Positions 24,298-41,627 of a stretch of DNA of 64,000 bases are shown one piece after another; the stretch's first letter is position 1; every line of letters begins with the position of its first letter. The stretch comes from Candidatus Levyibacteriota bacterium. GTDB lineage: Bacteria; Patescibacteriota; Microgenomatia; Levybacterales; UBA12049. Location: assembly GCA_963716145.1 (NCBI GenBank), contig OY970292.1:597171-661170 (forward strand). The letters run 5' to 3'. The translations under genes were made by a program, and so were the position numbers. The notes beneath the pieces are model-generated. The model was not told the DNA's origin and made no database searches. It was given only the letters and a program-made list of their open reading frames with translations.

Positions 24298-25198
24298 AAA
24301 TTATACTTTGTCAAGAATAATGCTTATACTCCCTGCCTATTTGTCAGCTCTCTGAGGAAAAGATTGTAATCAAACTGGTTTACATGACCATCGTCATCCA
24401 AATCGGCTAACAAATTATTTGCTGCAGTACAGGAAACGGCAGGCGTAAGATCGGAATAGCATCCTATCAAAATATTGTAATCAAGGATGTTAATGGTGTT
24501 GTCTCCGTTAATCTCACCATTTATCAATGTTGTTTGAGGCATTTGATTAACTCCTCCCGCAATTATATTTTGAATACCGGGAGTTAATGCTTTTAAGAAC
24601 TGATTTGTCTTTACTTTTATGGTATAAACTCCGCTTACGAGAGTAGTCCCCGCATCAACAGTTCCTGTGAAATTACCGCCAGTTGTACTGAAATTAACTA
24701 CTCCGTCTTTTGTTAAGATCAGCTGGTTCTGAGCATTGAGCACTTCAACTCGTACATTTCTTTGTGGGTGCAGTGGATGTTGATTTCCCCCTGATCCAGG
24801 ATTGGCGCTATCCCCCGCACTACCAATACCGTGAAGTAGAAGATTGAAAACCAGACTCGTGTTTCCGGGAACAGGTGTTGAGGTAGGAGTTCTAGTTGGT
24901 GTAGGCGTGAGAGTTGGCGGTGTGGTTGGTGAAGTCTCATTTCTACTAGGATCGTAAGAGTTTGGATTATTTGGATTTCCGTCTGTGTGGCAGATTGGAT
25001 CTCCACCGTCAATCACACCGTTATTGTTGTTATCTCTTGAATCAGCACAGGTATTCCCTCCCCCTTGCTCTCCCGGTCTTGTAGGATCGTAGCTATTGGG
25101 ATTATTTGGATTATTGTCTGTGTGACATGTTGAATCAAAACTGTCTTTGAAACCATTGTTATCGTTATCAATGTTGTCTGAGCATCTGGAGACGGGAG
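24298..25198. repeat. ~900-bp identical direct repeat (copy 2)
   Basis: See 22686..23586. Confidence 0.85.
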
Positions 25199-25865
25199 TT
25201 GGTGTTGGTGTTATAGTTGGCCTCAATGTTGGAGTAGGTGTGCTGGTTGGAATCCTAGTTGGGGTTGGAGTAGGTACGCGGCTAGGAGTTGGTGTTGGAA
25301 GATTAACCTCAGATCTGTGAGAGTCATATGAGTTGGGATTGTCCTGGTTACCGTCAGTATGGCAGGCAGGATCACCTCTATCAATCAGTTCATTTTGGTT
25401 ATTGTCAATTCCATCAGCGCAAGTTGTGGGTGGTGGCGTTGGCGAAGAGGTTGGAGTTATATATGGATTGGGCGAGCATCCGCCAATGTTGGCCACTTGC
25501 CTTGCAGTATTACCGCTTCCACGCATACTTCCTAAAACATTATTTCCAACATGATTGTTATCCCCTGTCACACAACCCGCGACATTATTCCCAATTCTAT
25601 TACCATTACCGAATACATTTCCTACATTATTTGTTATATTGTTATTATTTCCAATCAAATACCCAGAAACATTAACTGCAGTACAGTTATCGGCGATTAG
25701 ATCCCCATTCGTATTTGCGCTGCAATTGCCGGCAGCATTTGATCTTGTTTCCTGTCTTTGCTGACTGACCAAAACACCGCCAAAAAGCCCAAAAACCAAA
25801 AGAACGCCGGCAACAATTGAAAATTTTGTTCCAAATGAAAGATTTTTGAGGCTGTAAAAACTCAT
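24324..25865 (-). CDS. Dockerin-domain Cys/Asp-rich repeat protein (paralog 3)
   Basis: Same architecture. Divergent N-terminal ~215 aa. Confidence 0.6.
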   Translation of the reverse strand: MSFYSLKNLSFGTKFSIVAGVLLVFGLFGGVLVSQQRQETRSNAAGNCSANTNGDLIADNCTAVNVSGYLIGNNNNITNNVGNVFGNGNRIGNNVAGCVTGDNNHVGNNVLGSMRGSGNTARQVANIGGCSPNPYITPTSSPTPPPTTCADGIDNNQNELIDRGDPACHTDGNQDNPNSYDSHRSEVNLPTPTPSRVPTPTPTRIPTSTPTPTLRPTITPTPTPVSRCSDNIDNDNNGFKDSFDSTCHTDNNPNNPNSYDPTRPGEQGGGNTCADSRDNNNNGVIDGGDPICHTDGNPNNPNSYDPSRNETSPTTPPTLTPTPTRTPTSTPVPGNTSLVFNLLLHGIGSAGDSANPGSGGNQHPLHPQRNVRVEVLNAQNQLILTKDGVVNFSTTGGNFTGTVDAGTTLVSGVYTIKVKTNQFLKALTPGIQNIIAGGVNQMPQTTLINGEINGDNTINILDYNILIGCYSDLTPAVSCTAANNLLADLDDDGHVNQFDYNLFLRELTNRQGV

Positions 25866-25927: not shown

Positions 25928-27658
25928 TTACATTTTTGAAGGAGCTTCTATTCCTAGAAGATTCAGGCCTTTTTTAATCACTTCTCCTGTTTTGGATGTT
26001 AGAGCCAAACGAAAATCTTTACTCCCCTCCTCGGCCTTTAAAATTTGATGTTTTTGATAAAAAAGATTAAAACCTTGAGCAAGCTCAAAAAGATATGTCG
26101 CTACAGCACTCGGGCTCAACCTCTCCGCAGCCTCAATGATTACATCGTCAAATTTTGCCAGCAAACGAAGTAGCTCTCTCTCCTCAGGTTCAAATTCTCC
26201 TTTGAAATTGGAAATTGGAAATTGGAAATTGGAAATTCCTGCTTTTAGCAGCACACTCTGTGTGCGAGCATAAACATACTGTATATATGGTCCTGAATTT
26301 CCATCAAAGCTAATTGACTCTTCCAAATCAAATGCAATCTCCTGCTGTGTCGAAACTTTAAGAAATGAATATTTTACTGCAGCGACTGCAACCTTCTCGG
26401 CAATAATTTTTTGTTCCTCTTTTGTATAGTCTGATGCATTTTTATCTAGAATATCAATTATTTCTTTTTTTGCTTCATCAATGAGCCAATCTCCCAATAT
26501 CACGTTTCCGGATCTTGAGTTCATTTTACCGTGTTTTAGCTTGACCCACCCATAAGCCAAATGTTTCTCCTTACCACGCGTCTCCGGAAAAAGCTGAGCG
26601 AGCGCTTCAAAAACAACCTGAAAGTATCCCGACTGTTCAGGACCCACAACGTGGATAATCAAATCAGGATTATTTTCTTCAAATTGCAATGGCCCGAGCC
26701 CCATATCCTTGCCTTCGTAGGTTGGATTTCCCTCACTCGTAATAAATACTCTGTCATGAAGACCAAATTTTTTGCCGGGGAAAATAATCGCCCCATCGCT
26801 TTTTTCAAAAACTCCTTTTGTAAGCCCCTTCAAAACATTTTCTTTACCGGTCTCATATACCTCACTCTCAAAATAATAGCGGTCAAAATGAGCGTAAACT
26901 CTTTTGTAAATTTGTTCAAAGTAATCAAGGCTCCACTGCCTAGTGGTTTGGTAAAGCTCCCAAATAGACTTGTCTTTTGCATAGATTTTTTTGTTGATTT
27001 CACCAATTTCTTTTTTCGCATCCGGATTTTCTTCATAAGCTTTACTGCCTGCTGCATACGCTTTACCCAATAAATTAATTTTCTGTTCTAAGTTTAATTC
27101 TGAATTCTGAATTCTGAATTCTGAATTCTGCAAAATGCCGTACAGGCATTTTGCAATATGCATTCCAACATCTCCCTGATAATTTCCGCGGACTACTTTT
27201 GCACCCACAGCCTCAAGTAAACGCACAATTGACTCGCCGGTCGCAATATTGCGCAGATGACCGATGTGAAACGCTTTGTGGGTATTTGGGTGAGCAAATT
27301 CAACCAATATTTTCTTACCGGTAAGAGAAGTTTTATTTTTTTTACTATCTAAGTCTGTCAAACTATCAATTAGTGTATCATTTGAGATCCAAAAATTGAT
27401 AAACCCCGGCTTTACGACTTCCATTTTTTCAAAAATCCTTAATTCTTTATTCTTACTTCTTAATTCTTCTGAGATTTCCTCCCCCAACTCCATAGGATTT
27501 TTACCAAGTTTTTTACCTGCAACCAATGCTATGTTACTGGAATAATCCCCATGTTTTGGATCAGCCGGATAGTCGACTTTGACCTCAATATCACCCAATC
27601 CTATTTTTTCCAGAATTTCACCTAATTCTTCTTTTATTGTTTGTTTAATCATAATCAC
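25928..27658 (-). CDS. argS: Arginine--tRNA ligase
   Basis: 576 aa. 'HIGHLRN' class-I motif. The C-terminal anticodon-binding domain ends in '...APSKM'. Contains two in-frame heptamer microsatellites. Confidence 0.85.
   Translation of the reverse strand: MIMIKQTIKEELGEILEKIGLGDIEVKVDYPADPKHGDYSSNIALVAGKKLGKNPMELGEEISEELRSKNKELRIFEKMEVVKPGFINFWISNDTLIDSLTDLDSKKNKTSLTGKKILVEFAHPNTHKAFHIGHLRNIATGESIVRLLEAVGAKVVRGNYQGDVGMHIAKCLYGILQNSEFRIQNSELNLEQKINLLGKAYAAGSKAYEENPDAKKEIGEINKKIYAKDKSIWELYQTTRQWSLDYFEQIYKRVYAHFDRYYFESEVYETGKENVLKGLTKGVFEKSDGAIIFPGKKFGLHDRVFITSEGNPTYEGKDMGLGPLQFEENNPDLIIHVVGPEQSGYFQVVFEALAQLFPETRGKEKHLAYGWVKLKHGKMNSRSGNVILGDWLIDEAKKEIIDILDKNASDYTKEEQKIIAEKVAVAAVKYSFLKVSTQQEIAFDLEESISFDGNSGPYIQYVYARTQSVLLKAGISNFQFPISNFKGEFEPEERELLRLLAKFDDVIIEAAERLSPSAVATYLFELAQGFNLFYQKHQILKAEEGSKDFRLALTSKTGEVIKKGLNLLGIEAPSKM
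26204..26238. repeat. Tandem heptamer (gaaattg)x5 inside argS, encoding 'GISNFQFPISNF'
   Basis: Perfect 7-bp tandem repeat that keeps the reading frame. Confidence 0.9.
27096..27130. repeat. Tandem heptamer (aattctg)x5 inside argS, encoding 'QNSEFRIQNSEL'
   Basis: Perfect 7-bp tandem repeat that keeps the reading frame. Confidence 0.9.
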
Positions 27659-27708: not shown

Positions 27709-28272
27709 TTGCAAATGCCGAAATTTTTTGCTACTCTCCAAATATATATGACTTACAATTCAGAAACAACACCTGCCGAAGGTAAGCGCGCAAGATTTTT
27801 ACTTGTTGTTATAATTCTTCTTTTTGTGATCAGAATGCCATTTTTCCCACTTGGACAAAATAATCACTCATTCATGATTCTGGCCGAGTTGATTTCTGTT
27901 GCGGGATATCTCTTGTTCTTTCCAGTCATGGCTTCTCTACCTGGACCATCATGGACCAAGGCCGCGGGATATATGTGGATAATACTTGACTCAACGGCGA
28001 GTACACTTCCTCTCTACGGCGTGTCTGCGGAAATCTCAACAGCTTTACGCTTCGGCGGAGCGCATCTTGCATTGGCAGTCTGGATGGTATCAACTTCTTA
28101 TTATAGCCGGAGAAAAGCTTTGATGTTCACAAGTTTTCCCGTGGCTTTTTTTCTGATTGTTTACTCTTTTATAAATACTTGGGTGCCTCAGACAGCATTC
28201 ATTGCCTTCTATCCTATTTTATTAATTTGGTTTTTCCTGTTGCGAGGCTTACTGACAGGAAAAAATAAATAA
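27709..28272 (+). CDS. Hypothetical integral membrane protein (187 aa, ~5 transmembrane helices)
   Basis: Hydrophobic helices throughout. Confidence 0.45.
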   Translation: MQMPKFFATLQIYMTYNSETTPAEGKRARFLLVVIILLFVIRMPFFPLGQNNHSFMILAELISVAGYLLFFPVMASLPGPSWTKAAGYMWIILDSTASTLPLYGVSAEISTALRFGGAHLALAVWMVSTSYYSRRKALMFTSFPVAFFLIVYSFINTWVPQTAFIAFYPILLIWFFLLRGLLTGKNK

Positions 28273-28287
28273 ATATCCTGTACAAAT

Positions 28288-28959
28288 TCAGCGAGTTAAG
28301 AAACTTCTTACCTCCCCCTTTTCAAACTTCTTCCAATCATATGATCCGAATGGTTCGGAGCAGACGATAGTTAGTTCAGGGCTCTCAAAATAATACACAG
28401 AGTAATATTTTTCATCTGTCGCGTATTGATTGAGCACGTATACATCTTTTCCTACAACCAAACCGATATTCATCCCCTCTATCTTTTGAGAATTTCTGAT
28501 AATAAGTTTATCAACTATTTCCAAAGCGTTTTTGGGATCCTTGTCTTTCATTTGAAGCTTAAGTAGGGAAAATATTTTTTGAGAACCAATTTTCCCCTCA
28601 AGCGGAGTCGTTAATTTGACTTTATAAATAGTACCGTTAAAAACATAACACAAATCCCCATCAATAAACGGCTGGTTAAACTCAATTTCCCCTGTGTCTT
28701 TCATAAACCCAGACCCCCGGGCATGAGCAACAAGCATATCTGTTGCGGGAATTTGACTAAACATAGATTTCTCTTCCCACATTGGTGACAGGGATTTTTT
28801 GACCTCCCACTTACCGTTTTCCCGGAAAGCAATCCCATATCCATCCCATTGCCTATCACCATTTGGAGCAACGCTTTTCTCACTCAAGTCAGACAATGGT
28901 GTTAAAAAATCATCAGGATTTATTTTTTCTTTTGATTTGACGATTAGAAATCTGCACAT
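28288..28959 (-). CDS. Class-II glutamine amidotransferase-like Ntn hydrolase (N-terminal Cys2)
   Basis: Starts 'MCRFLIV...'. 223 aa, single GATase-2/EgtC-like domain with no synthase domain. It is the last gene of the LysW arginine operon. Confidence 0.5.
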   Translation of the reverse strand: MCRFLIVKSKEKINPDDFLTPLSDLSEKSVAPNGDRQWDGYGIAFRENGKWEVKKSLSPMWEEKSMFSQIPATDMLVAHARGSGFMKDTGEIEFNQPFIDGDLCYVFNGTIYKVKLTTPLEGKIGSQKIFSLLKLQMKDKDPKNALEIVDKLIIRNSQKIEGMNIGLVVGKDVYVLNQYATDEKYYSVYYFESPELTIVCSEPFGSYDWKKFEKGEVRSFLTR

Positions 28960-28962
28960 ATT

Positions 28963-30153
28963 TTACTGAGCAAATACTTCTTGAATAATTACCAGTGCTT
29001 CATCGATTTCCTTTTTAGAGACGTTGATTGGAGGCAAAAATCTAATTGTATCCGTACTTGATAAGGCGGCAATGAGTCCTACGTCCTGCATTTTTTTAAC
29101 GTAAGGTGTAGTTTTTTCCGAAAGCTCGATGCCAAGCATCAGTCCTTTGCCTTTTATTTTTACAATTACTGGGTTTTCCAATTTTTTAAGTTCCTCAAGG
29201 AAATATTTACCCATTTCTTTCGCGTTCTCAAGTAACTTTTCTTTCTTAATCTGCCTTATTACCTCAGTTGCCGCAGCACAAGCTAATGGAGATCCGCTAA
29301 ATGTACCTCCATGACCGCCTTTTGTCATCAAATCACCTACTTCTCTGGTGCTCATAACAAATCCAAAAGGTATTCCGTATGAAAAACTTTTTGAGAAGCA
29401 GGCAATATCCGGCACAACTCCGTACTGATCGGACGCGAGCCAACTTCCGGTCCTGATCGCGCTTTGTACCTCATCAAAAATAAGAAGAATACTCTTTGAT
29501 AGACAGAATTCTTTTAGTTCGCTTAAATAATTTTCATTGGGCAAAATCACTCCTGCCTCTCCCTGAATCGGCTCAACAATAACCGCCGCCGTGTTGCCAT
29601 TTATATTTTGTTTTACTGCTTCAATATCATTGAATCGAACATGAACAACATCTTTATTTATAAATGCCATGTAGTTTTTTTTGTACAATTCCGAGGCTGT
29701 AACAGACAGGCTGCCTAGTGATTTTCCATGATACGCGTTAGTTACTGCGACAAATCCGCTCTTGCCCGTTGCTGTCATTGCGAGTTTTAACGCGGCATCA
29801 ATTGATTCGGCTCCGGAGTTGGTAAAAATTATCTGCGTAAGATTTGCTGGAAGGATAGCGCTTAGTTCATTAATAAACTCCGCCCGCTTATCAGAATAAA
29901 ATGTCTGATGAGTTGAGGGAAGTGTCGTAAGTTGTTGACTAATCGCTGATGTAACTGAAGGATTTGTATATCCGAGAATATTGACCCCGATATTGGTCAT
30001 AAAATCCAGATACTTTTTACCGTCCGTATCATAAACATATGTTCCTTGTCCACGCTCCAAAGCGATCCCCCGCTTTGGGTAAAGCTTTACTTCGGATGTA
30101 TTTTCCAGATCGCTGATTTGTTTAAGATTCATAAATATGAGTTCCTCCCCCAT
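28963..30153 (-). CDS. argD: Acetylornithine/[LysW]-ornithine aminotransferase (class III PLP)
   Basis: 'LIFDEVQSAIRTGSW' and the 'CFSKS' lysine region. 396 aa. Confidence 0.8.
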   Translation of the reverse strand: MGEELIFMNLKQISDLENTSEVKLYPKRGIALERGQGTYVYDTDGKKYLDFMTNIGVNILGYTNPSVTSAISQQLTTLPSTHQTFYSDKRAEFINELSAILPANLTQIIFTNSGAESIDAALKLAMTATGKSGFVAVTNAYHGKSLGSLSVTASELYKKNYMAFINKDVVHVRFNDIEAVKQNINGNTAAVIVEPIQGEAGVILPNENYLSELKEFCLSKSILLIFDEVQSAIRTGSWLASDQYGVVPDIACFSKSFSYGIPFGFVMSTREVGDLMTKGGHGGTFSGSPLACAAATEVIRQIKKEKLLENAKEMGKYFLEELKKLENPVIVKIKGKGLMLGIELSEKTTPYVKKMQDVGLIAALSSTDTIRFLPPINVSKKEIDEALVIIQEVFAQ

Positions 30154-30940
30154 TTAATGCTGCGCTAATAGGGTTTTCAACCCTGCCATCCGTAATTATT
30201 ATTTTCCCAATCCCTAGATCTAAAAGCTTACTACATTCCAAAAGTTTTCTCTTCATCCGCCCGCTAACAATGTTGACTAACTCATCTAAATTTCCTTTAT
30301 TAACCTCTTTAATCAGAGAACTCTCGTCATTGAGATCTTTCAAAATACCCGGTGCTTCTATCAGGAACAGGAGAACTTCGGATTTAAAATCAGTAGCAAT
30401 TTTTGAAGCAATCTTATCCCCGTCCACATTTATAACCTCTCCCTCCTGAGTAATCACAGGCGGAGTAATTACAGGAATTATTCCTTTGTCCAAAAATAAA
30501 TTGAGCAGGTCCAAATTAATACTTTCAACATTTCCCGTCAGATCATCTTTCACAACTTTTTTCTTATCTCCCTCAACAGTAATTAAAGCCTCATGTTTTT
30601 TGCCAACTATTAATCGCCCGTCAACTCCAGATAAGCCAATCGCGTTAACACCGGATTTTAATAACGACTCAACTATTTTTTTATTCGCAAGCCCCGCGTA
30701 AGTCATGTACATCAACTCAATCGTTTCGCGTGTTGTATAGCGGCTGGTCATTCCTGAGGGTAAAGTGAGCATCTTTTTTTCAATACCAAGCTTCTGGCTA
30801 TAGAAATCCAAATAATAATTTCCGCCGTGAATAATAATAAATTTTTTATCCTGAGCTTGCCGAATGGACTGAATAGCAATATCGGAACTTATTGACTGGA
30901 GGTTAAGTGATTTGCCACCGCCGATTTTAATAACTATCAT
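30122..30940 (-). CDS. argB: Acetylglutamate/[LysW]-glutamate kinase (amino-acid kinase family)
   Basis: 'VIKIGG', 'IIHGG', 'NVDGD' motifs. Confidence 0.75.
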   Translation of the reverse strand: MIVIKIGGGKSLNLQSISSDIAIQSIRQAQDKKFIIIHGGNYYLDFYSQKLGIEKKMLTLPSGMTSRYTTRETIELMYMTYAGLANKKIVESLLKSGVNAIGLSGVDGRLIVGKKHEALITVEGDKKKVVKDDLTGNVESINLDLLNLFLDKGIIPVITPPVITQEGEVINVDGDKIASKIATDFKSEVLLFLIEAPGILKDLNDESSLIKEVNKGNLDELVNIVSGRMKRKLLECSKLLDLGIGKIIITDGRVENPISAALNGGGTHIYES

Positions 30941-30952
30941 AATTTTTAAGTT

Positions 30953-31999
30953 CTAAACCGGGTAAAGTCCGATCGTCTCAAGACCCAGATTTTCATCAAA
31001 CCCTTGAGCGATATTGAAACATTGCACAGCCTGTCCGGCGGCACCTTTTATCAGATTATCAATTGCCGACATCACAACCAGGCGGTTTGAATGCGGATCT
31101 TTTTCAAATCCAATCTCGCAAACATTTGTCCCGATCAGCAACTTTGGCTCAGGATATTTGAAGTTCCCTTTCTTCTCCTTAACTATACGGATGAAAGGCT
31201 TATCTTTGGCAAACTCGCGGTAAATGCCCCAGATATCAATTTCCGAGACATTCTCTTTGAGAAAAACATGAGATGTCGCAAGTATTCCTCTTACCGCCTC
31301 AACCGCGGTTGCTGAGAAATTAATTTGCGGCTTTTTCCCATCAATTGTCAGCTCCTGAATTATTTCAGCCGAATGTCTGTGCCCAGTCGGAGCAAATGAG
31401 CGCATTACGCCTGATCGCTCAGCATGCATTGAAGCCTTGGATAACTTATTCCCTGACGCGGAAGAGCCTGTTTTGGCCTCGATTATGATCGGCGCGTCAT
31501 CTACAACTCCCGCTTTGAGGAGTGGGTACAAACTTAAAATCGAAGCCGTAGACATACATCCGGGACAGGCGATAAGATGAGCGCTTTTAATTTGCTCTTT
31601 ATAAAGTTCAGGCAAGCCTAGCACTTTGCTCTTGAGCAAATCAGGATTTGGATGATCCAATTTATACCAGGTTGGATAATCTCCCGGATTATCCAGTCTG
31701 AAGTCCCCACTCAAATCAATAACTGTTTTGGCAATTGGCAGAAGATCATTTATCTGGTTCATGCCGATGCCATGCGGCAGGCAAAGAAACAACACATCGC
31801 ATTTTTCCAGATCTTTTATCGAAACAAATTTATTGCTGAACTGCCTTAAGTTTGGGTGGATTGTTTTTATGAACTGACCTTGATTTGTCTCAGACGTTGC
31901 TTGATGCAGATTCACATTCGGATGCTTGAGTAAGAGTCTCAAGAGCTCCCCTCCTACATAACCCGATGCGCCGATTACTGATACATTAATTTTTTCCAT
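30953..31999 (-). CDS. argC: N-acetyl-gamma-glutamyl-phosphate / [LysW]-glutamyl-phosphate reductase
   Basis: 'VSVIGASGYVGGELLRLL' NAD(P)-binding fold. Catalytic Cys region 'ACPGC'. Confidence 0.8.
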   Translation of the reverse strand: MEKINVSVIGASGYVGGELLRLLLKHPNVNLHQATSETNQGQFIKTIHPNLRQFSNKFVSIKDLEKCDVLFLCLPHGIGMNQINDLLPIAKTVIDLSGDFRLDNPGDYPTWYKLDHPNPDLLKSKVLGLPELYKEQIKSAHLIACPGCMSTASILSLYPLLKAGVVDDAPIIIEAKTGSSASGNKLSKASMHAERSGVMRSFAPTGHRHSAEIIQELTIDGKKPQINFSATAVEAVRGILATSHVFLKENVSEIDIWGIYREFAKDKPFIRIVKEKKGNFKYPEPKLLIGTNVCEIGFEKDPHSNRLVVMSAIDNLIKGAAGQAVQCFNIAQGFDENLGLETIGLYPV

Positions 32000-32852
32000 A
32001 TTTTAAAACATACTCAACCATCAACTTAGCGATATTTACATCTGATACATCATTTAACCCATGGAATTCAGGCGTAGTATTTACCTCAAAAACAAGATAT
32101 TTATTATCATGCTCCACCAGATCGACTCCGGCAATTTCAACTCCCAAAACATCAACTATATTCTTGCACAGATCTATTATGTCTTTATTCAAATCCAGTT
32201 TCTGAGGAATCCCGCCTTTTGCGGTGTTGGTCAGCCAATGGGTAGATGCTCTATACATCGCGGCGACCGGTTCGCCTCCGATCACAAATACCCGTAGGTC
32301 ACGATCCGGCTTTTTGATATACTGCTGGATATAAAATATCGAATGCTGCGGTCCGCCGAGTCCTTCCTTATGATCCATAATAGCCTCCAAATCCGACTCT
32401 GAACTAATTTTTGAGACAAGTCTTCCCCATGAGCCCCAGACCGGTTTTATAACAATCGGATAGCCGATTTCTGAGGCGGCTTGAAGAGCCATTGATTGTG
32501 AAAACGCGATTTTGGTAATGGGAACCGGTATACCTTTTTGTTCAAGGAGTTGTGTTGAAAGAATCTTGTTATTGCAAAGTGTTGTGGCAGCGCCTGAATT
32601 AATCGTCCTGACACCCATCGCTTCCAGATAATCAACAATCAGCTCGGCCCTTGTCTGCCCTATTTCGCGGTTGAGAACCAGATCAACTCCTTCAAAATCC
32701 AAAGTAGCAGAACTTAAGATAATTTTCCGAGGATCAATCTGCACTACCTCAATATTCTTTTTGGCGAATTCCTGAAACAACAATTTCTCCTCAATTCTGA
32801 TTTTCGAACACAAAATACCTACCTTCATGACACTTCGCTTTTCATCTTTCAT
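31986..32852 (-). CDS. lysX: RimK/LysX-family ATP-grasp ligase (glutamate--LysW ligase ArgX/LysX)
   Basis: ATP-grasp fold, ~288 aa, immediately downstream of lysW. Confidence 0.7.
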   Translation of the reverse strand: MKDEKRSVMKVGILCSKIRIEEKLLFQEFAKKNIEVVQIDPRKIILSSATLDFEGVDLVLNREIGQTRAELIVDYLEAMGVRTINSGAATTLCNNKILSTQLLEQKGIPVPITKIAFSQSMALQAASEIGYPIVIKPVWGSWGRLVSKISSESDLEAIMDHKEGLGGPQHSIFYIQQYIKKPDRDLRVFVIGGEPVAAMYRASTHWLTNTAKGGIPQKLDLNKDIIDLCKNIVDVLGVEIAGVDLVEHDNKYLVFEVNTTPEFHGLNDVSDVNIAKLMVEYVLKYGKN

Positions 32853-32930
32853 GTTAATTTTAAACCTTTCCTAATTCTCATAACGCAATTAAGCTTCACG
32901 TCATGATCCTGAGCTTGCCGAATGGACATA

Positions 32931-33122
32931 TTATTGTCCCCAATCTTCCTGCGCGACAGGCGCCAGGGTGAGCTTAATTGGATTCACTTCAACAACCTCC
33001 AAATCAGTACTGCACTCAGGACAAGTTATAACTTCTCCTACCTGAGTATCTTTCTCAACAGTAATTTCTCCATGACAATCCAGGCATTTTGTTTTTGTGT
33101 TATCTAAAATTTGATCATTCAT
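32931..33122 (-). CDS. lysW: LysW/ArgW amino-group carrier protein
   Basis: 63 aa. Two CxxC pairs ('CLDCHG', 'CPEC') and a C-terminal 'EDWGQ' (LysW 'EDWGE' tail). Confidence 0.8.
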   Translation of the reverse strand: MNDQILDNTKTKCLDCHGEITVEKDTQVGEVITCPECSTDLEVVEVNPIKLTLAPVAQEDWGQ

Positions 33123-34111
33123 AATAGCTCACCCCCCTTAAGTAACCATACAATTAATGCTTTTTGAACGTGCATTCTATTCTCGGCCTGCTGAAAAACA
33201 ACTGATTGCTCTCCGTCAATTACCTCTTCAGCCACTTCGTTTCCCCGGTATGCAGGCAAATCGTGCATAAATATCGCGTCTTTCAACGCATGCTCCATCA
33301 TATCATTATTTACTTGATAAGACTTAAATATACTCAATCTTGTATCCTTATCTTCTTCAGACCCCATACTTACCCAGGTATCCGTGTAGACAACATCCGC
33401 GTCTTTAATAGCTTCTTTGGGGTCATCTGTTTCCAAAACGTTTCCGAATTTTTTGGCCGCCGAAACAATTCCGGGGTCCATAAAATATCCTTTTGGAGCG
33501 GCGCATTTGAAATTTGCGCCAAGCATTGTTGTTGCCAAACATAATGAATGCGCAACATTATTATTCCCGTCCCCAATGTAGGAGATATCTAAACCTTTAA
33601 TCTCGCCCTTTAATTCCCAGATTGTAAAAAGATCTACTAGGGCTTGGCAGGGATGCTCCAGATCTGAAAGCGCGTTGATTACAGGAACTGTCGAATACTT
33701 TGCCATCTCTTCCAAGCTTTTATGCGAGTTAACCCTCGCGACAATCAAGTCGCTCATGCTGGATGTAACTTTGGCAATATCCGAGACCGACTCCCTCTTC
33801 CCTAGTCCGATTTCGGCAGGACCAAAATACAATGCATGTCCGCCAAGCTGATCAAAACCCATATCAAAACTAAGTTTGGTCCGTAAAGACGGCTTTTCAA
33901 ATAGCATTGCCATCTGTTTGCCTTCCAGAACATGCTGGTTCTTCCCCGTCTTTTTAAACTCAGTTTTCAGTTTTTTGGCAAGTTTGAGAACTTCCCAAAT
34001 CTGCTGTGCGGATAAATCAGTCACCGATAAAAAGTCTATTTTTTGCTTAATATTGTTCATTTTATTAGTTTTTGTGTAATTTTGACAAAATATTACTATT
34101 TTTTGCCGCAA
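33119..34111 (-). CDS. argF: Ornithine carbamoyltransferase
   Basis: 'KPSLRTKLSF' (STRTR motif), 'HPCQALVDL', 'DTWVSMG', 'HDLPAYRGNEV'. Confidence 0.85.
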   Translation of the reverse strand: MRQKIVIFCQNYTKTNKMNNIKQKIDFLSVTDLSAQQIWEVLKLAKKLKTEFKKTGKNQHVLEGKQMAMLFEKPSLRTKLSFDMGFDQLGGHALYFGPAEIGLGKRESVSDIAKVTSSMSDLIVARVNSHKSLEEMAKYSTVPVINALSDLEHPCQALVDLFTIWELKGEIKGLDISYIGDGNNNVAHSLCLATTMLGANFKCAAPKGYFMDPGIVSAAKKFGNVLETDDPKEAIKDADVVYTDTWVSMGSEEDKDTRLSIFKSYQVNNDMMEHALKDAIFMHDLPAYRGNEVAEEVIDGEQSVVFQQAENRMHVQKALIVWLLKGGELL

Positions 34112-34140: not shown

Positions 34141-34169
34141 ATTCTATAAAAAATCGAAGCTTTTGTCAA
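34141..34169 (-). promoter_or_regulatory. Sigma-70-type promoter for the argF-lysW operon
   Basis: On the minus strand: TTGACA, 17-nt spacer, TAGAAT. About 25 nt upstream of the argF ATG. Confidence 0.45.
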
Positions 34170-34253: not shown

Positions 34254-35276
34254 ATGCCAAGTATAATAGATAGATATAGAGACATTCATGCAGGTAGCAA
34301 ACCAAGAGTTCTTGAGTCTATCGGTACGAAAGGTGATCGTATTACGATAAAACCGCGTCTCGGTGGAGACTTTAAAGTTAAAAGAATAGGCACAGGAGGA
34401 TCTAGCGAACTCCCTTTTAAGGATTTTGAGGAAGGAATCGTCTTACTCCCTGCATTTCGCGAGGCATTGCCAGCACTCGCCGAACTTTATCCTGCGTCAC
34501 CTAAATGGTCTAGGGTAGTAGAAACAGATCTTATTCTCCCCGGTAAAAAAAGGACAGATGATTTCAGGAGAAAATGGCTCCAGCCAATTGGGGCAAACAC
34601 TGCACCCGTTTCCTATCTTAAAAGTGATGAATTTAAGAGAAAACAGATAGCTGAACAAACTGCCGCAGGAAATTTGCTAATAGCACAGGGAGATCAGTCT
34701 GCGGAGTATCCGGTTCACGACCGGATGTTTCACTTATTTGGCTTATTAGCGGAACCCCAGGTTACATTGCAAGCATTACAATATGTTGCCCAGAATATAC
34801 CTGACTTAGCAAAAAGACACCCGGAAGCTGCAGATGTAGTCAGAAAATCAATTGCCGAATCCTTTGAGCTATCAAGTAATAGCTCAGAAATTAATAATAG
34901 AGATTTATATATCCCATCTCTGGATATTTTAAACGCGCTAGTTATATGGACTGATGTTAATTCAATGGATCAAGCCGGGAAAACCGCTAATAACTTTGTG
35001 AAGAGCTTACTTGATGAACGCGGTTTTGAAGTTGTCAGAAGCACAAATCTATTATCTACCACAAGGGAAACTCTCCCCAGCGGCAGGTTTATGCATTTTG
35101 TTAGCCACATTTTACAAGGAGAGGTGTCAGGCTTGGTCGTACCCAGAGAGCAGGAACTATTAGTTGATTATATTCCAAAACTTGTACGACATCTTCAGCT
35201 TGTACCCGATCCTGCTTCAGAACCTGAAATATCGCGACATGAATACTCTCGCCTCTCTAGAAGAAGAGCCGCTTAA
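34254..35276 (+). CDS. Hypothetical protein (340 aa)
   Basis: Long ORF with no recognisable motifs. Preceded by TTGCAA-17-TATAAT about 11 nt before the ATG. Confidence 0.4.
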   Translation: MPSIIDRYRDIHAGSKPRVLESIGTKGDRITIKPRLGGDFKVKRIGTGGSSELPFKDFEEGIVLLPAFREALPALAELYPASPKWSRVVETDLILPGKKRTDDFRRKWLQPIGANTAPVSYLKSDEFKRKQIAEQTAAGNLLIAQGDQSAEYPVHDRMFHLFGLLAEPQVTLQALQYVAQNIPDLAKRHPEAADVVRKSIAESFELSSNSSEINNRDLYIPSLDILNALVIWTDVNSMDQAGKTANNFVKSLLDERGFEVVRSTNLLSTTRETLPSGRFMHFVSHILQGEVSGLVVPREQELLVDYIPKLVRHLQLVPDPASEPEISRHEYSRLSRRRAA

Positions 35277-35280
35277 ATTG

Positions 35281-38200
35281 TTACTTTAGATACTCACTCC
35301 ACGCTTTTATTTTCAGATCGGTGAATTTATTATTCGTAAGCGCGTCTATAAAAAGACTTGTGGTTTTGATCTTGGTGAACAACGCTATATTGTTTTCAAT
35401 AGCTGCTCTCCCAATCTGATAGTCATCCTGAACTTCTTTTCTTATATTTTTATCCACTATATTTATAACTAAATCTATTTTTTTATTTCTGAAATAATCA
35501 AGAATATTCGGGGATTTATTTTCGTGAATCTTATAAAGTGTTTTTGCTTTTATGCCACTGAGCTTAAGGAAAGCGGCGGTTTTTTCGGTGGCGTACAATG
35601 GAAAACCCAATCCAGTAATTTTTTTAGCAACAGCTAGAAAATCCACTTTCTTCTGCTCCCCCCCAACGCTTATAAAAATTCCTTTCTCCGGCAGTTTATC
35701 CCCGGTCGCGATAATTCCTTTGAGATACGCTTCCTCCAAATTTTCCCCAAAACAGGCGACCTCACCGGTTGAGGCCATTTCGACTCCAAGACTTGGTGAG
35801 GCACCCACCAATCTTGCAAATGAAAATTGCGCTACTTTAAGAGCAGTAAAATTTTGCTGAGGCACGGAAACATCAGCAATATTTTTCTTGAACAACGAGT
35901 CGATAAATAAAGAGATCAAGTTAATTCCCGTCACTTTCGCGATAAACGGAAATGTTCTTGAAGCTCTTAAATTGACTTCTATGATGTAAACTTCTTGATC
36001 CAGAACAAGAAACTGAATATTGTAAGGACCAGTAATCTGTAACTCTTCAGCAATTTTTTTGCCGGTTTCTTTTATTTTGTTTTGAATTTCCGGAGATATT
36101 GTTTGGGCGGGAAGAGCAATTGTCGCGTCCCCCGAGTGAACACCTGCGTACTCGATGTGTTCTGAGACAACTGCCGCTTTTGTGACTCCATTTTGGGCTA
36201 CTGAATCAAGCTCTACCTCTTTGGACTTTTGAAAAAACTTGGAAACTGTCACAGGATATTCTTTTGAGACCAAAGCTGCCTCTTCAAGATATTTTTCAAG
36301 ATCTGACGCGTCATTGCAGATGTTCATCGCAGCTCCTGATAAAACATACGATGGCCGGATAAGAACCGGATAGCCAACTTTATCGGCAAATTTTTCAGCT
36401 TGTTCAAGCGTTGAAAAAGCATTCCAGGCAGGCTGCTTGATCTCCAATTTATCAAGGAGTGCGGAAAACTTGCTTCGGTCTTCAGCCCTATCAATGTTTT
36501 CAGGACTTGTTCCAAGAATATTGACACCGTATTTATAGAGCGCTTTGGCTCGGTTATTTGGAGTTTGCCCGCCTACTGAAACTATCAAACCCTGCGGATT
36601 TTCAAATTCATAGATATCGGCAATCCGTTCAAAAGTCAGCTCTTCAAAATACAATTTGTCTGAAATATCATAATCGGTTGAAACTGTTTCCGGATTGCAA
36701 TTTATGATTATTGATTGCCTGTCATACTTTTTAAGATTTATTACAGTGTTGACCGAACACCAATCAAACTCAACTGACGAGCCGATGTGGTAAGGACCGG
36801 AGCCAAGAACTATAACTGCATCTTTACCTGCTGCTTTGACATCATCGTGACTTGCGTTATAAGTCATATATAGATAATTTGTTTTCGCGGGAAACTCTGC
36901 GGCAAGAGTATCAATCTGTAGCACACTAGGTAATATTTTTAATTTTTTGCGGATTTCGCGGATTTCAAGTCCTGTTTTTCCAATCAGCTCCCCTATTCTT
37001 TTATCTGAAAAGCCGAGTTGCTTTAGTTCCAATAAATAAGATTGGTTATTTGAAATTTGAAATTTGAAATTTGAAATTTTTTTTAGCTCTTCCTCGTGGT
37101 CTGTTATATTTTTAATTCTTGAGAGAAACCAAGGATCAATTCCCGACAATTTATAAATTTGATCAATCTCCATTTTGTTTTTGAGAGCGCGACTGACAGC
37201 AAACATCCGCTTGGGGGTTGGGTTTTTAAGAGTATCAATAACTAAATCTTTTGCTTTAAACTCGTTATCATTGACCGCCCCCTCATACTCCATATCCAGC
37301 ATCCTGATTGCCTTTTGATACCCCTCTTCAAATGTTCTGCCGATTCCCATAACCTCACCAACGGACTTCATACTGCTTCCCAATTTATCACTCGCTCCTT
37401 TGAATTTATCCATATCAAATCTGGGGATTTTTACCACTATATAATCAAGCGCAGGCTCAAAACAGGCCTGAGTTACTCCGGTTACTTTATTTTCGAGACT
37501 AGTCAGACCGTATCCAAGACCTAATTTAGCGGCGATATAAGCTAGAGGGTAGCCGGTTGCTTTACTCGCAAGAGCGGAACTTCTTGAAAGCCTCGCGTTT
37601 ACTTCAATTACATAATAGTCGGGTACGGTACCGCTCGAGCGTGGATTTAAGGCAAACTGCACATTGCACTCTCCTATTATTCCAAGACTCCTGACAATCT
37701 CAATTGATGCTCTTCTTAATTCATGATATTCTTCGTTATTAAGAGTTTGGCTTGGGGCCACAACTATTGAATCACCCGTGTGGATTCCCAGAGGATCCAT
37801 ATTTTCCATGTTGCAGACAGTCACACAATTATCAAATTTGTCCCTTACGACTTCATACTCAATTTCTTTATAATGATGAAGGTACTGCTCAATCAGCACT
37901 TGGGGCGCAAAAGCCAGTGCGTGTTCAACAATTTTTTTAAGCTCTGTCATGTTTTGAGCGACTCCTGATCCCTGACCGCCGAGTGCAAAACCAGCTCTTA
38001 TCATTGCCGGAAATCCGATCTCTTTTGCTATTTTTACAGCTTCCTCAATAGTTGTTGCTGCGCGCGATTTGGGAGTTGGGATATTTAATTTATTCAAATG
38101 CTGCGAAAATTTCTTGCGATCCTCAGTTAAAATAATTGCCGAGATTGGAGTACCCAAAATTTCGACATTGTGCTTTTTCAACACTCCGTTTTTGTGAAGC

Positions 38201-38505
38201 GCAATCCCGCAATTGAGGGCTGTCTGGCCTCCAAATGAAAGCAGAATACCATCAGGTTTTTCCTTTTCAATTACTTTCTCAACAAATTCGGGTGTTACGG
38301 GCAGGAAATAAACTTCATCAGCCAATTCTCTTGAGGTCTGAATTGTCGCGATATTTGGATTGACTAGAACTGTTTTTATTCCCTCCTCTTTAAGAGCTTT
38401 TATGGCTTGGGAGCCTGAATAGTCAAACTCCCCCGCCTCACCGATTTTCAGAGCACCCGACCCGAGGATCAGGACCTTTTTGATTTTTTTATTTAAAATA
38501 TCCAT
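35281..38505 (-). CDS. carB: Carbamoyl-phosphate synthase large subunit
   Basis: 1074 aa. Two ATP-grasp halves plus an MGS-like C-terminus. Contains an in-frame (tgaaatt)x4 repeat at 37051..37078. Confidence 0.9.
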   Translation of the reverse strand: MDILNKKIKKVLILGSGALKIGEAGEFDYSGSQAIKALKEEGIKTVLVNPNIATIQTSRELADEVYFLPVTPEFVEKVIEKEKPDGILLSFGGQTALNCGIALHKNGVLKKHNVEILGTPISAIILTEDRKKFSQHLNKLNIPTPKSRAATTIEEAVKIAKEIGFPAMIRAGFALGGQGSGVAQNMTELKKIVEHALAFAPQVLIEQYLHHYKEIEYEVVRDKFDNCVTVCNMENMDPLGIHTGDSIVVAPSQTLNNEEYHELRRASIEIVRSLGIIGECNVQFALNPRSSGTVPDYYVIEVNARLSRSSALASKATGYPLAYIAAKLGLGYGLTSLENKVTGVTQACFEPALDYIVVKIPRFDMDKFKGASDKLGSSMKSVGEVMGIGRTFEEGYQKAIRMLDMEYEGAVNDNEFKAKDLVIDTLKNPTPKRMFAVSRALKNKMEIDQIYKLSGIDPWFLSRIKNITDHEEELKKISNFKFQISNNQSYLLELKQLGFSDKRIGELIGKTGLEIREIRKKLKILPSVLQIDTLAAEFPAKTNYLYMTYNASHDDVKAAGKDAVIVLGSGPYHIGSSVEFDWCSVNTVINLKKYDRQSIIINCNPETVSTDYDISDKLYFEELTFERIADIYEFENPQGLIVSVGGQTPNNRAKALYKYGVNILGTSPENIDRAEDRSKFSALLDKLEIKQPAWNAFSTLEQAEKFADKVGYPVLIRPSYVLSGAAMNICNDASDLEKYLEEAALVSKEYPVTVSKFFQKSKEVELDSVAQNGVTKAAVVSEHIEYAGVHSGDATIALPAQTISPEIQNKIKETGKKIAEELQITGPYNIQFLVLDQEVYIIEVNLRASRTFPFIAKVTGINLISLFIDSLFKKNIADVSVPQQNFTALKVAQFSFARLVGASPSLGVEMASTGEVACFGENLEEAYLKGIIATGDKLPEKGIFISVGGEQKKVDFLAVAKKITGLGFPLYATEKTAAFLKLSGIKAKTLYKIHENKSPNILDYFRNKKIDLVINIVDKNIRKEVQDDYQIGRAAIENNIALFTKIKTTSLFIDALTNNKFTDLKIKAWSEYLK
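37051..37078. repeat. Tandem heptamer (tgaaatt)x4 inside carB, encoding 'ISNFKFQISN'
   Basis: Perfect 7-bp tandem repeat. Confidence 0.9.
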
Positions 38506-38510
38506 AATTC

Positions 38511-39593
38511 TTAATTCTTAATTCTCTCCATAAAAAAGTCGAATATCCACTCTGTGTCTTTTGGTCCCGGTGTTGCTTCAGGATGAAATTGAACTGACAT
38601 GAAAGGAAGCTTACTATGAATTATGCCTTCGATGCTTTTGTCATTGGCGTTGGTGAACCAGGGATTAAATCCTGTCGGAACATCCGAAATCGCGAAGCCA
38701 TGATTTTGGGTCGTGATATAGCATCTGTTACTTTTTTTCAACAAACATGGTTGATTTTGGCTTCTGTGACCGTACTTCAATTTATAAGTATCCCCTCCAG
38801 CGGCAAGTGCGAGTAGCTGATTACCAAGACAAATTCCAAGAGTGGGAATTTTATTTTCAAGCGATTTTTTAATAGTCGCTATAGCTTTGTCAGCTTTTTT
38901 TGGGTCTCCTGGGCCATTGGAAATAAATAAAGCGTCAAATTTGAAATCAACATTTTTTGCAAAAGGATCAAAATCCCATGGAACTGTAATTACTTCAATT
39001 TCTCTTCTGAGAAAGCAGCGCGTGATATTCCTCTTCGCCCCACAGTCGATAATTACAACTGTTTTACCCTGCTTGCCCCGCGAAGCTTTAGCGAAGTGAG
39101 GAGCCAAGTCGAAGGGCTTCTCCTTTATTATTCTTTTTGTAGAAACCTGTCCGACTATATTTACCTCATTCGGGTCAAAAAATGCTGTGTCAGACTTGTT
39201 AATTATTTTTCCAAGCATTGTTCCGTTTTCCCGCAAATGCTGGGTTATAAATCTCGTATCTTTTATCTCAAGCGCGGGAACTTTTTCCTTTTTCAGCCAC
39301 TGAGAAAGTGTCATTTTGCTTTGGAAATGAGACGGGGTGTCAATGTAGTCGGAAACAATCAGGCCCGAGATTTGTAGTTTTCCTGACTCCCAAAACATCT
39401 TGTCTGGCACTCCATAATTGCCAATCAATGGGTAAGTCAGGACCAGTATTTGCCCGGCAAATGAGGGATCAGTCAACGCCTCAGGATATCCGGTCATTCC
39501 TGTAGCGAAAACAACTTCACCGGCGACAGAACCATCATATCCAAACGATTTTCCCTCAAACTCTTTGCCGTTTTTAAGTACTAACTTCGCCAT
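38511..39593 (-). CDS. carA: Carbamoyl-phosphate synthase small (glutaminase) subunit
   Basis: 'GICLGNQLLALA' and a C-terminal 'FHPE' triad region. Confidence 0.85.
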   Translation of the reverse strand: MAKLVLKNGKEFEGKSFGYDGSVAGEVVFATGMTGYPEALTDPSFAGQILVLTYPLIGNYGVPDKMFWESGKLQISGLIVSDYIDTPSHFQSKMTLSQWLKKEKVPALEIKDTRFITQHLRENGTMLGKIINKSDTAFFDPNEVNIVGQVSTKRIIKEKPFDLAPHFAKASRGKQGKTVVIIDCGAKRNITRCFLRREIEVITVPWDFDPFAKNVDFKFDALFISNGPGDPKKADKAIATIKKSLENKIPTLGICLGNQLLALAAGGDTYKLKYGHRSQNQPCLLKKSNRCYITTQNHGFAISDVPTGFNPWFTNANDKSIEGIIHSKLPFMSVQFHPEATPGPKDTEWIFDFFMERIKN

Positions 39594-40364: not shown

Positions 40365-41627
40365 CTATTTTTTCCAGACCCAGATTTCCGGGCCGCCTTG
40401 GTGATTTGAGGACTTCAAAACTTCCACCACATCAAACTGTGGTATTTTGTCCAGCGACATCCCAATCTCTTTATATGCATCGCGGAATGGCATTCCTTTT
40501 TTCACCAAAAGATACGCAGCGTGCGCCGCGAACATATCCGGCGTGCAGGATTTTAACAATACGTCTTCGTTGGGGGTAAGATTTTCAAGAACCAATTTCA
40601 CGATCCCGATTGAGTCGCGTGTGATATCAACGCAATCAATAAAAAGCTCTTTTGTCTCGCCAAAATCTACGTTATAGCCCGATGGCAAACCGGCAACAAT
40701 TGAAGCAGCCGTCTGCTCATGTCCCACAACCATGTGGGATCTGGCCCGCAAAACTTCCATAATATCCAAATTTTTCTTCTGAGGCATGATGCTTGAGCCT
40801 GAAAGAAGTGAATCATCAACCGTAAAGAAATTGTATTCACTGGTCGTAAAAAGCAGCAAATCCTGAGCAAATCTGGATAATGTCAGCATTGTCTGGGTAA
40901 GAACGTGCATAACCGCGAGCTGAAATTTGACTCTGCCCGCTTGAGTATAAAGAGTATTGTTCTGGACTTTGGCAAAGCCAAGCATATCCGACACAAGAGT
41001 TCTGTTGATAGGAAGTGAAACTCCGTACGCAGCCCCAGCGCCAAGCGGTGACTGATCGGTGATGATAAAAGCACTCTTCAGAAGTATCAGATCATCAATT
41101 ATTGATTCGGCAAAGCTCCCCATCCACATTCCCACACTTGAGGGCATTGCCTTTTGCATGTGAGTGTAGCCGGGCATTGGGACAAATTCATAGCGCACAG
41201 CCATTTTCTGAAATGCCAGAACCAGATCCGAGGCCGCTTCAAAAATCCCGAAAAGTTCTTCTTTGGCAAAAAGCCGCAAATCTAAAATAACTTGGTCATT
41301 TCTTGACCTTGCAGTGTGGATCTTTTTGGCAGGCTCGCCCACTTTTTCAGTCAGAAAATTTTCGATTTTGGTGTGAACATCCTCGTCATGTGAGTCTATT
41401 GTGAACTCACCTTTCTCATCTAACCGTATGATTTCAAGCAGCTCTTTTTTTAATGACTCAAACTCTTCAGGAGTCAAAATACCGATAGTTGAGAGCATTT
41501 TGGCATGAGCAATCGAGCCCAAGGCATCGGCTTTTACAAGCCGAGTGTCCAGCACGGCGCTGCGCGCAAAGCAATACATCTCAGCCAATTCATTTTGAGT
41601 ATAATTTTTATGCCAAAGTTTTTTCAT
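40365..41627 (-). CDS. argH: Argininosuccinate lyase
   Basis: 'GSSIMPQKKNLD' fumarate-lyase signature. N-terminal 'DALGSIAHAKML'. Confidence 0.8.
   Translation of the reverse strand: MKKLWHKNYTQNELAEMYCFARSAVLDTRLVKADALGSIAHAKMLSTIGILTPEEFESLKKELLEIIRLDEKGEFTIDSHDEDVHTKIENFLTEKVGEPAKKIHTARSRNDQVILDLRLFAKEELFGIFEAASDLVLAFQKMAVRYEFVPMPGYTHMQKAMPSSVGMWMGSFAESIIDDLILLKSAFIITDQSPLGAGAAYGVSLPINRTLVSDMLGFAKVQNNTLYTQAGRVKFQLAVMHVLTQTMLTLSRFAQDLLLFTTSEYNFFTVDDSLLSGSSIMPQKKNLDIMEVLRARSHMVVGHEQTAASIVAGLPSGYNVDFGETKELFIDCVDITRDSIGIVKLVLENLTPNEDVLLKSCTPDMFAAHAAYLLVKKGMPFRDAYKEIGMSLDKIPQFDVVEVLKSSNHQGGPEIWVWKK

Follow-up and report, generated by a model that had tools for sequence, protein, structure and literature searches.

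Gene content of the operon

The 64-kb stretch of DNA analysed here, which we call the window, belongs to a Candidatus Levyibacteriota bacterium (contig OY970292.1, positions 597,171 to 661,170) and carries an arginine biosynthesis operon of the LysW type, whose last gene encodes a 223-residue protein beginning MCRFLIVKS. LysW carrier proteins that have been characterised bear the substrate on the gamma-carboxyl of their C-terminal glutamate, for example E53 in T. kodakarensis, and the final step of the pathway is known to be catalysed by LysK, a homologue of ArgE (PMC12998189). We describe the 223-residue protein, its relatives and their genomic neighbourhoods, and propose that it takes the place of LysK.

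The operon consists of seven closely packed minus-strand genes between positions 34111 and 28288, assigned from a listing of open reading frames (ORFs) and from scans with Pfam and NCBIfam models; its order, argF-lysW-lysX-argC-argB-argD followed by the gene for the 223-residue protein, is that given by the initial annotation. The first gene, argF (34111..33119), encodes an ornithine carbamoyltransferase (NF001986, 405 bits; cut-off 306), whose true start is probably an ATG at about 34060. It is followed by lysW/argW (33122..32931), encoding the 63-residue zinc-ribbon amino-group carrier protein that ends in QEDWGQ (PF21344, E = 6.5e-16), and by lysX/argX (32852..31986), encoding a LysX-family ATP-grasp ligase (TIGR02144, 288.5 bits; cut-off 275.6) that would join glutamate to LysW through the gamma-carboxyl of its last residue. 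Next come argC/lysY (31999..30953) for the [LysW]-glutamyl-phosphate reductase (TIGR01850, 390 bits; cut-off 233.6), argB/lysZ (30940..30122) for the [LysW]-glutamate/aminoadipate kinase (NF010659, 303 bits; cut-off 223) and argD/lysJ (30153..28963) for the class-III aminotransferase acting on LysW-glutamate semialdehyde (PF00202, E = 2.4e-100; LysJ models, E = 1e-102). On an identical public contig (L001) the argD/lysJ gene call is shorter, with 389 residues and a start at 30132. The last ORF (28959..28288) encodes the 223-residue protein, a Cys2 amidohydrolase of the N-terminal nucleophile (Ntn) type with the class-II glutamine-amidotransferase/EgtC fold and our proposed LysW-gamma-glutamyl amidase. 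The argF and lysW frames overlap by 4 nucleotides and those of lysX and argC by 14, and the last gene, translationally coupled to the operon, has its ATG 3 nucleotides after the argD stop codon.

A LysX-type ligase, a LysZ kinase, a LysY reductase and a LysJ aminotransferase are thus encoded together with LysW, and LysK is the only member of the pathway missing from the operon. The window ligase has the signature F-M-T-GL, with an ArgX-like pair of glycine and a hydrophobic residue at positions 258/259 (specificity motifs of LysX and ArgX as defined in PMC12998189). We also considered ArgF as a LysW-ornithine carbamoyltransferase, with release following carbamoylation, and rejected this candidate, since the protein scores as a canonical ornithine carbamoyltransferase and its match to the acetylornithine-type model is below cut-off.

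The 223-residue protein and its active site

The protein is a single domain that falls below the curated Pfam thresholds for GATase_4, GATase_6 and GATase_7: its GATase_6 match scores 17.9 bits (E = 0.003) against a gathering score of 27, and its match to the EgtC model TIGR03442 scores 38.1 bits (E = 1e-9) against an equivalog cut-off of 218.65. It has no homology to the M20 peptidases (PF01546). As far as sequence goes, these matches make it a divergent outlier of the class-II (Ntn, PurF-type) amidotransferase superfamily. An AlphaFold2 model based on an alignment of 63 homologues reached a predicted local distance difference test score (pLDDT) of 95.3 and a predicted template modelling score (pTM) of 0.92. 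Its best matches to solved structures in Foldseek were all EgtC chains (E = 5e-13, TM score 0.77-0.81, identity 18-20%), followed by the stand-alone proteins 3MDN and 1TE5 and then by the glutaminase domains of GlmS and PurF (down to E = 1e-6), all in keeping with the Ntn four-layer alpha-beta-beta-alpha fold. When the PDB was searched by sequence with the family profile, 3MDN was the sole match (E = 2e-4), and the relation to EgtC came to light only with the structure model. The single class-II amidotransferase-type domain claimed by the initial annotation is therefore faint in profile searches and borne out by the predicted structure.

The 63 homologues, which share 35-80% identity, have 22 invariant positions, the nucleophile among them; C2, R3, H79, R81, N108, G109, G125, Q127 and K128 are all invariant. 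In an hhalign comparison with the glutaminase domain of GlmS, H79-A-R81 falls on H71-T-R73 and F107-N108-G109 on H97-N98-G99; in GlmS, R73 binds the alpha-carboxylate of the substrate and N98-G99 belong to the oxyanion hole. This alignment covered only R73 to N98-G99 of GlmS, and the position of the Asp in the T-D-S/T-E motif (GlmS D123) was mapped via E. coli YafJ and the relative P0204: in profile alignments to these two proteins it coincides with the invariant Gly125 (I124-G125-S126-Q127). In glutamine-dependent enzymes this Asp binds the free alpha-amino group of glutamine. The terminal Glu of LysW has a free alpha-carboxylate and no free alpha-amine, and an Asp-to-Gly change in the pocket is what one would expect if the substrate is bound to LysW.

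A profile search of 1.84 billion representatives returned 124 clusters with E < 1e-30 and 340 with E < 1e-10. Nearly all of about 150 top representatives start M/V/L-C-R, and most carry GxxG[AS][QE]K at the Gly125 site, the remainder being mostly fragments or motif variants. The only one of these 150 to bear TDSE is P0204, the nearest relative to do so, and it is not linked to lysW. A few distant members (P0194, P0205) have Ser where the nucleophilic Cys would be, their sequences beginning MSRF; they lack the GxxG[AS][QE]K motif and may be inactive or Ser-nucleophile variants. Isoelectric points, taken as a proxy for a basic surface on which LysW might dock, were uninformative (family median 8.7; window protein 6.0).

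Family members go under the public names 'hypothetical protein' and 'predicted glutamine amidotransferase' only, and no curated Pfam or NCBIfam model names the family. The closest labelled relatives are from metagenome-assembled genomes, one of Levyibacteriota (83%, partial match) and one labelled 'Saccharimonadales' (76%). Within the searchable literature, full-text searches combining LysW or carrier protein with Ntn, amidotransferase or the Candidate Phyla Radiation (CPR), and searches for EgtC, found no description of the enzyme. In two loci (L047:18445 and L048:11281) the public gene calls begin at a second Met (MVRSK... and MVKGK...), with an in-frame MCRFL 15 nucleotides upstream, and the annotation thereby drops the catalytic Cys.

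Linkage to LysW clusters across genomes

A synteny scan of one genome per species (GTDB) yielded 33 genomes with a homologue. In 32 of them the homologue lies inside a lysW/lysX/lysY/lysZ/lysJ cluster, usually as its last gene, and in most of the 33, as in the window, it comes directly after lysJ (lysW-lysX-lysY-lysZ-lysJ-Ntn). The genomes belong mostly to the Microgenomates of the CPR (Gottesman-, Roizman- and Levybacteria); other labels are those of the Parcubacteria group (Parcubacteria, Komeilibacteria, Paceibacterota), Woesearchaeota, 'Borrarchaeota' and Dehalococcoidia. Distant members of the family (profile E about 1e-26 to 1e-36) are likewise found in lysW clusters, and two of these lie on a 326-kb contig encoding flagellin and on a 352-kb contig with Tct transporters, contents which indicate that these members are not from the CPR. 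Loci reached by starting from LysW also carry the Ntn gene. The co-occurrence with lysW that the initial annotation had asked about thus extends beyond the synteny scan to distant members and LysW-anchored loci, the exception being one locus (L034) that we return to below.

The clusters are of two types. Those of the arginine type, to which the clade of the window belongs, have argF upstream, some also argG, argH and carAB, and argS downstream. Those of the lysine type (alpha-aminoadipate) include homocitrate synthase (HCS), several add homoaconitase and homoisocitrate dehydrogenase, several have lysS downstream, and their ligases bear the LysX-type signature x-I-T-N[SVI]. All that the two types have in common is LysW chemistry. 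This bears directly on the idea that the protein is an EgtC- or YafJ-like amidase of free glutamine or of a gamma-glutamyl metabolite, for example in glutamate supply, placed next to lysW for regulatory reasons only. The EgtC-like fold and the sequence matches to EgtC and GATase_6 would suit such an enzyme. We nevertheless consider it very improbable, given its linkage to operons that make different products by way of LysW, the invariant Gly in place of the Asp that binds a free alpha-amine, the lack of lysW linkage in the Asp-retaining P0204, and the absence of egtB, egtD and egtE among the annotated operon genes and the larger window ORFs scanned.

It is even harder to see the gene as a hitch-hiker or a decaying copy without any role in the pathway. 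The orphan, C-terminally short copy in L034 could be taken in this sense; however, 22 positions including the nucleophile are invariant in 63 homologues and the gene is kept in the operon across three gene orders and GC contents of 0.28-0.70, which makes such a history extremely unlikely.

Several other features of the clusters deserve mention. A conserved gene of about 217 residues is divergent from lysW in 20 loci, largely of the lysine type, and is absent from the window and the arginine-type loci (examples are L020:1440-2090, L025:3923-4591, L012:1892-2554 and L042:9074-9730, all on the minus strand, and also L046-L048). Its product, which shows in its C-terminal half a weak similarity to the ACT region of aspartate kinase (E = 1e-4) and also has a weak match to DUF7523, may be a lysine-sensing regulator. 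The adjoining aminoacyl-tRNA synthetase is mostly the one for the amino acid that the pathway makes: argS follows the arginine-type clusters (two copies in L008), and lysine-type clusters adjoin lysS, either class II fused to an HD domain (to which L042 adds B3_4) or class I with B3_4 (synthetases beside clusters lie at L020:10693-12798, L042:2938-5691 and L047:19074-20174). L007 has a LysX-like ligase signature yet argS downstream. Lastly, two loci of the Woesearchaeota type (L028:2886-4561 and L042:11289-12958) have two LysX paralogues each and one Ntn gene between lysY and lysZ; the paralogues of L028 have the signatures F-I-T-NS and F-V-V-KF (ArgX-like). This arrangement suggests a single release enzyme for both the lysine and the ornithine branch.

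The search for LysK/ArgE

In Pyrococcus furiosus the cluster reads lysW-lysX-lysY-lysZ-lysJ-Peptidase_M20, with LysK directly after lysJ. The presence of the Ntn gene in this same slot is one of the grounds for our proposal of a release enzyme. No M20 peptidase was found in the 64-kb window, either by Pfam scans of the larger ORFs or when E. coli ArgE and P. furiosus LysK were run with phmmer against the ORFs of all six frames, in agreement with the initial annotation. The window and loci together (723 kb, phmmer --max) contained no ArgE/LysK homologue except the P. furiosus control, whose LysK was detected by both queries, and a further 713 kb of linked loci contained no M20, bringing the total to about 1.4 Mb.

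The C-terminal residue of LysW

The LysW of the window ends in EDWGQ and not in the canonical EDWGE (codons GAA GAT TGG GGA CAA TAA). The zinc ribbon and the EDWG are present, and with its terminal Gln the protein fits the carrier family only if this residue is deamidated after translation: an ATP-grasp ligase requires a carboxylate, and a Gln terminus would thus have to be converted before loading.

Ten of 29 LysWs linked to the enzyme end in Gln and the other 19 in Glu. Among CPR-type LysWs the figures are 19 and 101 of 120, with no other terminal residue. On the tree of the enzyme the Gln state implies at least 7 independent E/Q changes, and loci L010 and L015 have near-identical LysWs that differ only at the terminal residue. 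As a control, we searched with the PDB sequences of the Thermus, Thermococcus and Sulfurisphaera LysWs: 115 of the 120 best hits end in Glu, 4 have aberrant ends (C-terminal extensions, substitution, truncation) and 1 ends in Gln. This single Gln-terminated control, looked up blind, comes from the locus lysW-HCS-lysX-lysX-lysY-(219-residue gene)-lysZ-lysJ, and the 219-residue product is a member of the family (MCRIL start, GRIGAEKIF motif, hhalign E = 4.5e-41). A scan of metagenome contigs for the pattern AP..(E/Q)EDWGQ-stop gave at least 120 LysW-Gln loci. The family hidden Markov model matches 41 of the 120 listed, and these 41 span GC contents of 0.28-0.70. Of the LysW-Gln loci listed, 35 have lysZ as well as lysJ, and the Ntn gene is present in every one of these; an M20 peptidase gene occurs in none of them.

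Deamidation of a glutamine side chain is the ancestral reaction of the enzyme superfamily, and the simplest reading of the pattern would be that an amidase acting on gamma-glutamyl amides of LysW makes a Glu-to-Gln change neutral. An amidase of small molecules would leave this pattern without explanation.

The same pattern can be read more narrowly, with the Ntn protein only maturing LysW by deamidating its Gln, and with an unlinked M20 LysK/ArgE or some other hydrolase freeing the product. Besides the ancestry of the domain and the Gln terminus in the window, it counts in favour of such a division of labour that our M20 negative is limited to the window and linked loci. However, 19 of the 29 linked LysWs already end in Glu (as do those of L047, L048, L036 and L170) and would need no maturation, and in these loci the gene is kept with its catalytic residues intact. 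This, together with the lack of an M20 peptidase in about 1.4 Mb of linked loci, leads us to regard a purely maturing enzyme as unlikely.

A second alternative is that the protein works as a transferase in the manner of ArgJ, with a new glutamate or alpha-aminoadipate attacking the LysW thioester through its amine, so that product (or the Gln amide) would be exchanged for substrate without ATP. Acyl-enzyme chemistry of this kind is familiar from ArgJ and the gamma-glutamyl transpeptidases, and a Gln terminus would be a ready acyl donor. Yet the LysX/ArgX ATP-grasp ligase is kept in every locus and class-II amidotransferase domains normally hydrolyse their thioester, while a site for a second substrate is not inferable from the data. 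Transfer in place of hydrolysis thus seems to us quite improbable.

Surroundings of the operon in the window

The initial annotation had pointed to carAB, argH and argS as neighbours of the operon, and all of them are indeed found within about 7.5 kb of it, on the minus strand: carB (35281..38505) and carA (38511..39593), whose carbamoyl-phosphate synthase supplies ArgF, argH (40365..41627; argininosuccinate lyase; TIGR00838, 327 bits, cut-off 279.5) and, downstream of the operon, argS (25928..27658; arginyl-tRNA synthetase, from the ORF listing). The gene for argininosuccinate synthase, argG, was not found in the 64-kb window, unlike in the relative L008, where argH-argG-argF-lysW are consecutive. 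The best sigma-70-like promoter match upstream of argF (34141..34169, minus strand; TTGACA-17-TAGAAT, 11/12) is a candidate only, and scans of the region for promoters and terminators gave no more matches than shuffled sequence.

Two opposite-strand ORFs without family matches flank the operon (34254-35276, plus strand, 340 residues; 27709-28272, plus strand, 187 residues). The 340-residue ORF lies between argF and carB, two genes that are adjacent in the Levybacteria relative L004, and thus resembles an insertion. Further downstream are tandem 513-residue paralogues (22712-24253 and 24324-25865, both minus strand) with 70% DNA identity, each with a weak C-terminal dockerin-type match. The ends of the window (1-8000 and 60000-64000) have a GC content of 0.47-0.50 against about 0.36-0.44 elsewhere, and the left end holds a 1688-residue ORF together with ORFs that have weak matches to endosialidase tail-spike and Peptidase_G2 models; these ends may be foreign or phage-derived DNA, or encode large surface proteins.

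Discussion

Our analysis points to the 223-residue protein as the release hydrolase of the LysW pathway, a metal-independent Cys-Ntn amidohydrolase that replaces the M20 peptidase LysK/ArgE, a reading to which we give a probability of roughly 0.75. The replacement of the LysK step had been put forward in the initial annotation, and it gains support from the linkage to lysW, the absence of a nearby M20 gene, the loss of the Asp that would hold a free alpha-amine and the Gln/Glu pattern at the end of LysW; the substrate itself, like both reactions discussed here (release and deamidation), is what we infer from these observations.

In the mechanism that we envisage, removal of the initiator Met would expose Cys2 as the N-terminal nucleophile, which would attack the gamma-glutamyl amide between the C-terminal residue of LysW and the alpha-amine of ornithine, or of lysine in the sister operons of the lysine type. 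The amino acid would depart and leave a LysW-gamma-glutamyl thioester, with Asn108-Gly109 stabilising the oxyanion and Arg81 holding the free alpha-carboxylate of the terminal residue, and water would then restore LysW-Glu, which ArgX could load again. The ornithine set free in the window organism would be converted to arginine via ArgF (with CarAB) and ArgH, ArgG being encoded outside the window. With ammonia as the leaving group, the same chemistry would turn an encoded C-terminal Gln into Glu, and the EDWGQ protein of the window would be a pro-carrier that the enzyme has to activate first. We lean, if only slightly, towards the view that the enzyme also deamidates LysW-Gln. The combined proposal, a dual-function LysW amidase that both deamidates a Gln-terminated pro-LysW and frees the finished amino acid in an independently evolved arrangement like that of Dop and Pup, has in our judgement a little better than an even chance of being right. 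Its boldest version, in which this dual-function amidase would also transfer the LysW thioester onto new glutamate or alpha-aminoadipate and so run an ATP-independent cycle like that of ArgJ, is a speculative extension that we find improbable.

Several observations weigh against these conclusions. Around the homologue in L034, a C-terminally short copy with 36% identity, no lysW genes occur within 6-10 kb. Conversely, both lysJ and the Ntn gene are absent from the 10-kb stretch recovered of L151, the one long LysW-Gln locus that lacks the enzyme, which either belongs to a split cluster or represents a different solution. The lysY and lysZ genes of L151 are separated by an unrelated insertion that comprises a 136-residue ORF with a weak CarboxypepD_reg-type match and a 412-residue ORF with a CarboxypepD_reg domain and a weak alpha/beta-hydrolase match (6304-7991, plus strand). 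The lysK gene of Thermus is not part of its main cluster, and the absence of M20 genes from clusters is thus no proof of their absence from the genome. The argument from the Asp-to-Gly change is based on profile alignments and not on a substrate complex, the association between the Gln terminus and the enzyme is partly confounded by lineage, and LysX might be able to accept a Gln terminus or to get around it.

If the proposal is correct, it has consequences for the annotation of these genomes. Without LysK, a LysW pathway is given an incomplete score, and prototrophy for lysine and arginine would thus be under-called in the CPR (Levy-, Gottesman- and Roizmanbacteria, Parcubacteria), in DPANN-like archaea and in other uncultured lineages, groups which are usually described as auxotrophic symbionts. 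The family requires an annotation model of its own. Gene calls at a second Met can delete the catalytic Cys. The LysW pathway itself is known; what appears to be new is that it is combined here with a Gln-terminated pro-carrier and with a release enzyme not homologous to LysK. The substitution of a metal-free Cys-Ntn amidase for a di-metal M20 peptidase would be a clear example of non-orthologous displacement, and the enzyme would be the first of the class-II amidotransferase-type domains for which a protein C-terminus has been proposed as the site of action. The Gln-terminated LysW would similarly be the first pro-carrier of the LysW system, in parallel to Pup-GGQ and Dop.

Comparison with known systems

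The closest functional counterpart is LysK/ArgE of the M20 family, as found in Thermus, Sulfolobales and Thermococcales. The step in the pathway would be the same for LysK and the 223-residue protein, as would the proposed reaction, hydrolysis of the gamma-glutamyl isopeptide by which the product is joined to the end of LysW, and in the window and most of its relatives the Ntn gene has the operon slot after lysJ that lysK has in P. furiosus. The two enzymes are otherwise unrelated in fold and mechanism and without sequence similarity, one being a di-metal peptidase and the other a Cys-Ntn thioester enzyme. The Ntn enzyme is also predicted to accept ammonia as leaving group, which would make a Gln-terminated LysW usable, whereas the LysWs of the LysK lineages have no Gln termini.

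Among solved structures the best match is EgtC (PDB 4ZFJ/4ZFK/4ZFL), which also consists of one class-II amidotransferase-type domain standing on its own and has an N-terminal Cys. When EgtC cleaves its gamma-glutamyl amide, an amino acid departs by way of its alpha-amine, as we propose for the release from LysW. It differs in its egt gene context, as opposed to LysW-pathway neighbours in 32 of 33 genomes, in the Asp that is replaced by Gly in the 223-residue family, and in its substrate, a free dipeptide, where that of the 223-residue protein would be a protein C-terminus. The YafJ/SPO2029/PA1307-type proteins (PDB 3MDN, 1TE5) have the same fold and domain architecture; they keep the canonical T-D-S-E where the 223-residue family has Gly.

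The most instructive parallel in logic is that with Dop and Pup. Dop is a single enzyme that both deamidates the C-terminal Gln of Pup and hydrolyses the gamma-glutamyl isopeptide made by an ATP-dependent ligase, and Pup is Gln- or Glu-terminated depending on the species (Pup-GGQ, Pup-GGE). Pup and LysW are both small acidic carriers or modifiers whose Gln/Glu termini vary, the likeness on the LysW side consisting here only of a comparative signature, an E/Q interchange restricted to the Ntn-linked LysWs. Dop has a glutamine-synthetase-like, ATP-binding fold and is not an Ntn enzyme. The two small proteins also serve different ends: Pup marks proteins for degradation through their lysine side chains, and LysW shields the alpha-amine of an intermediate in biosynthesis.

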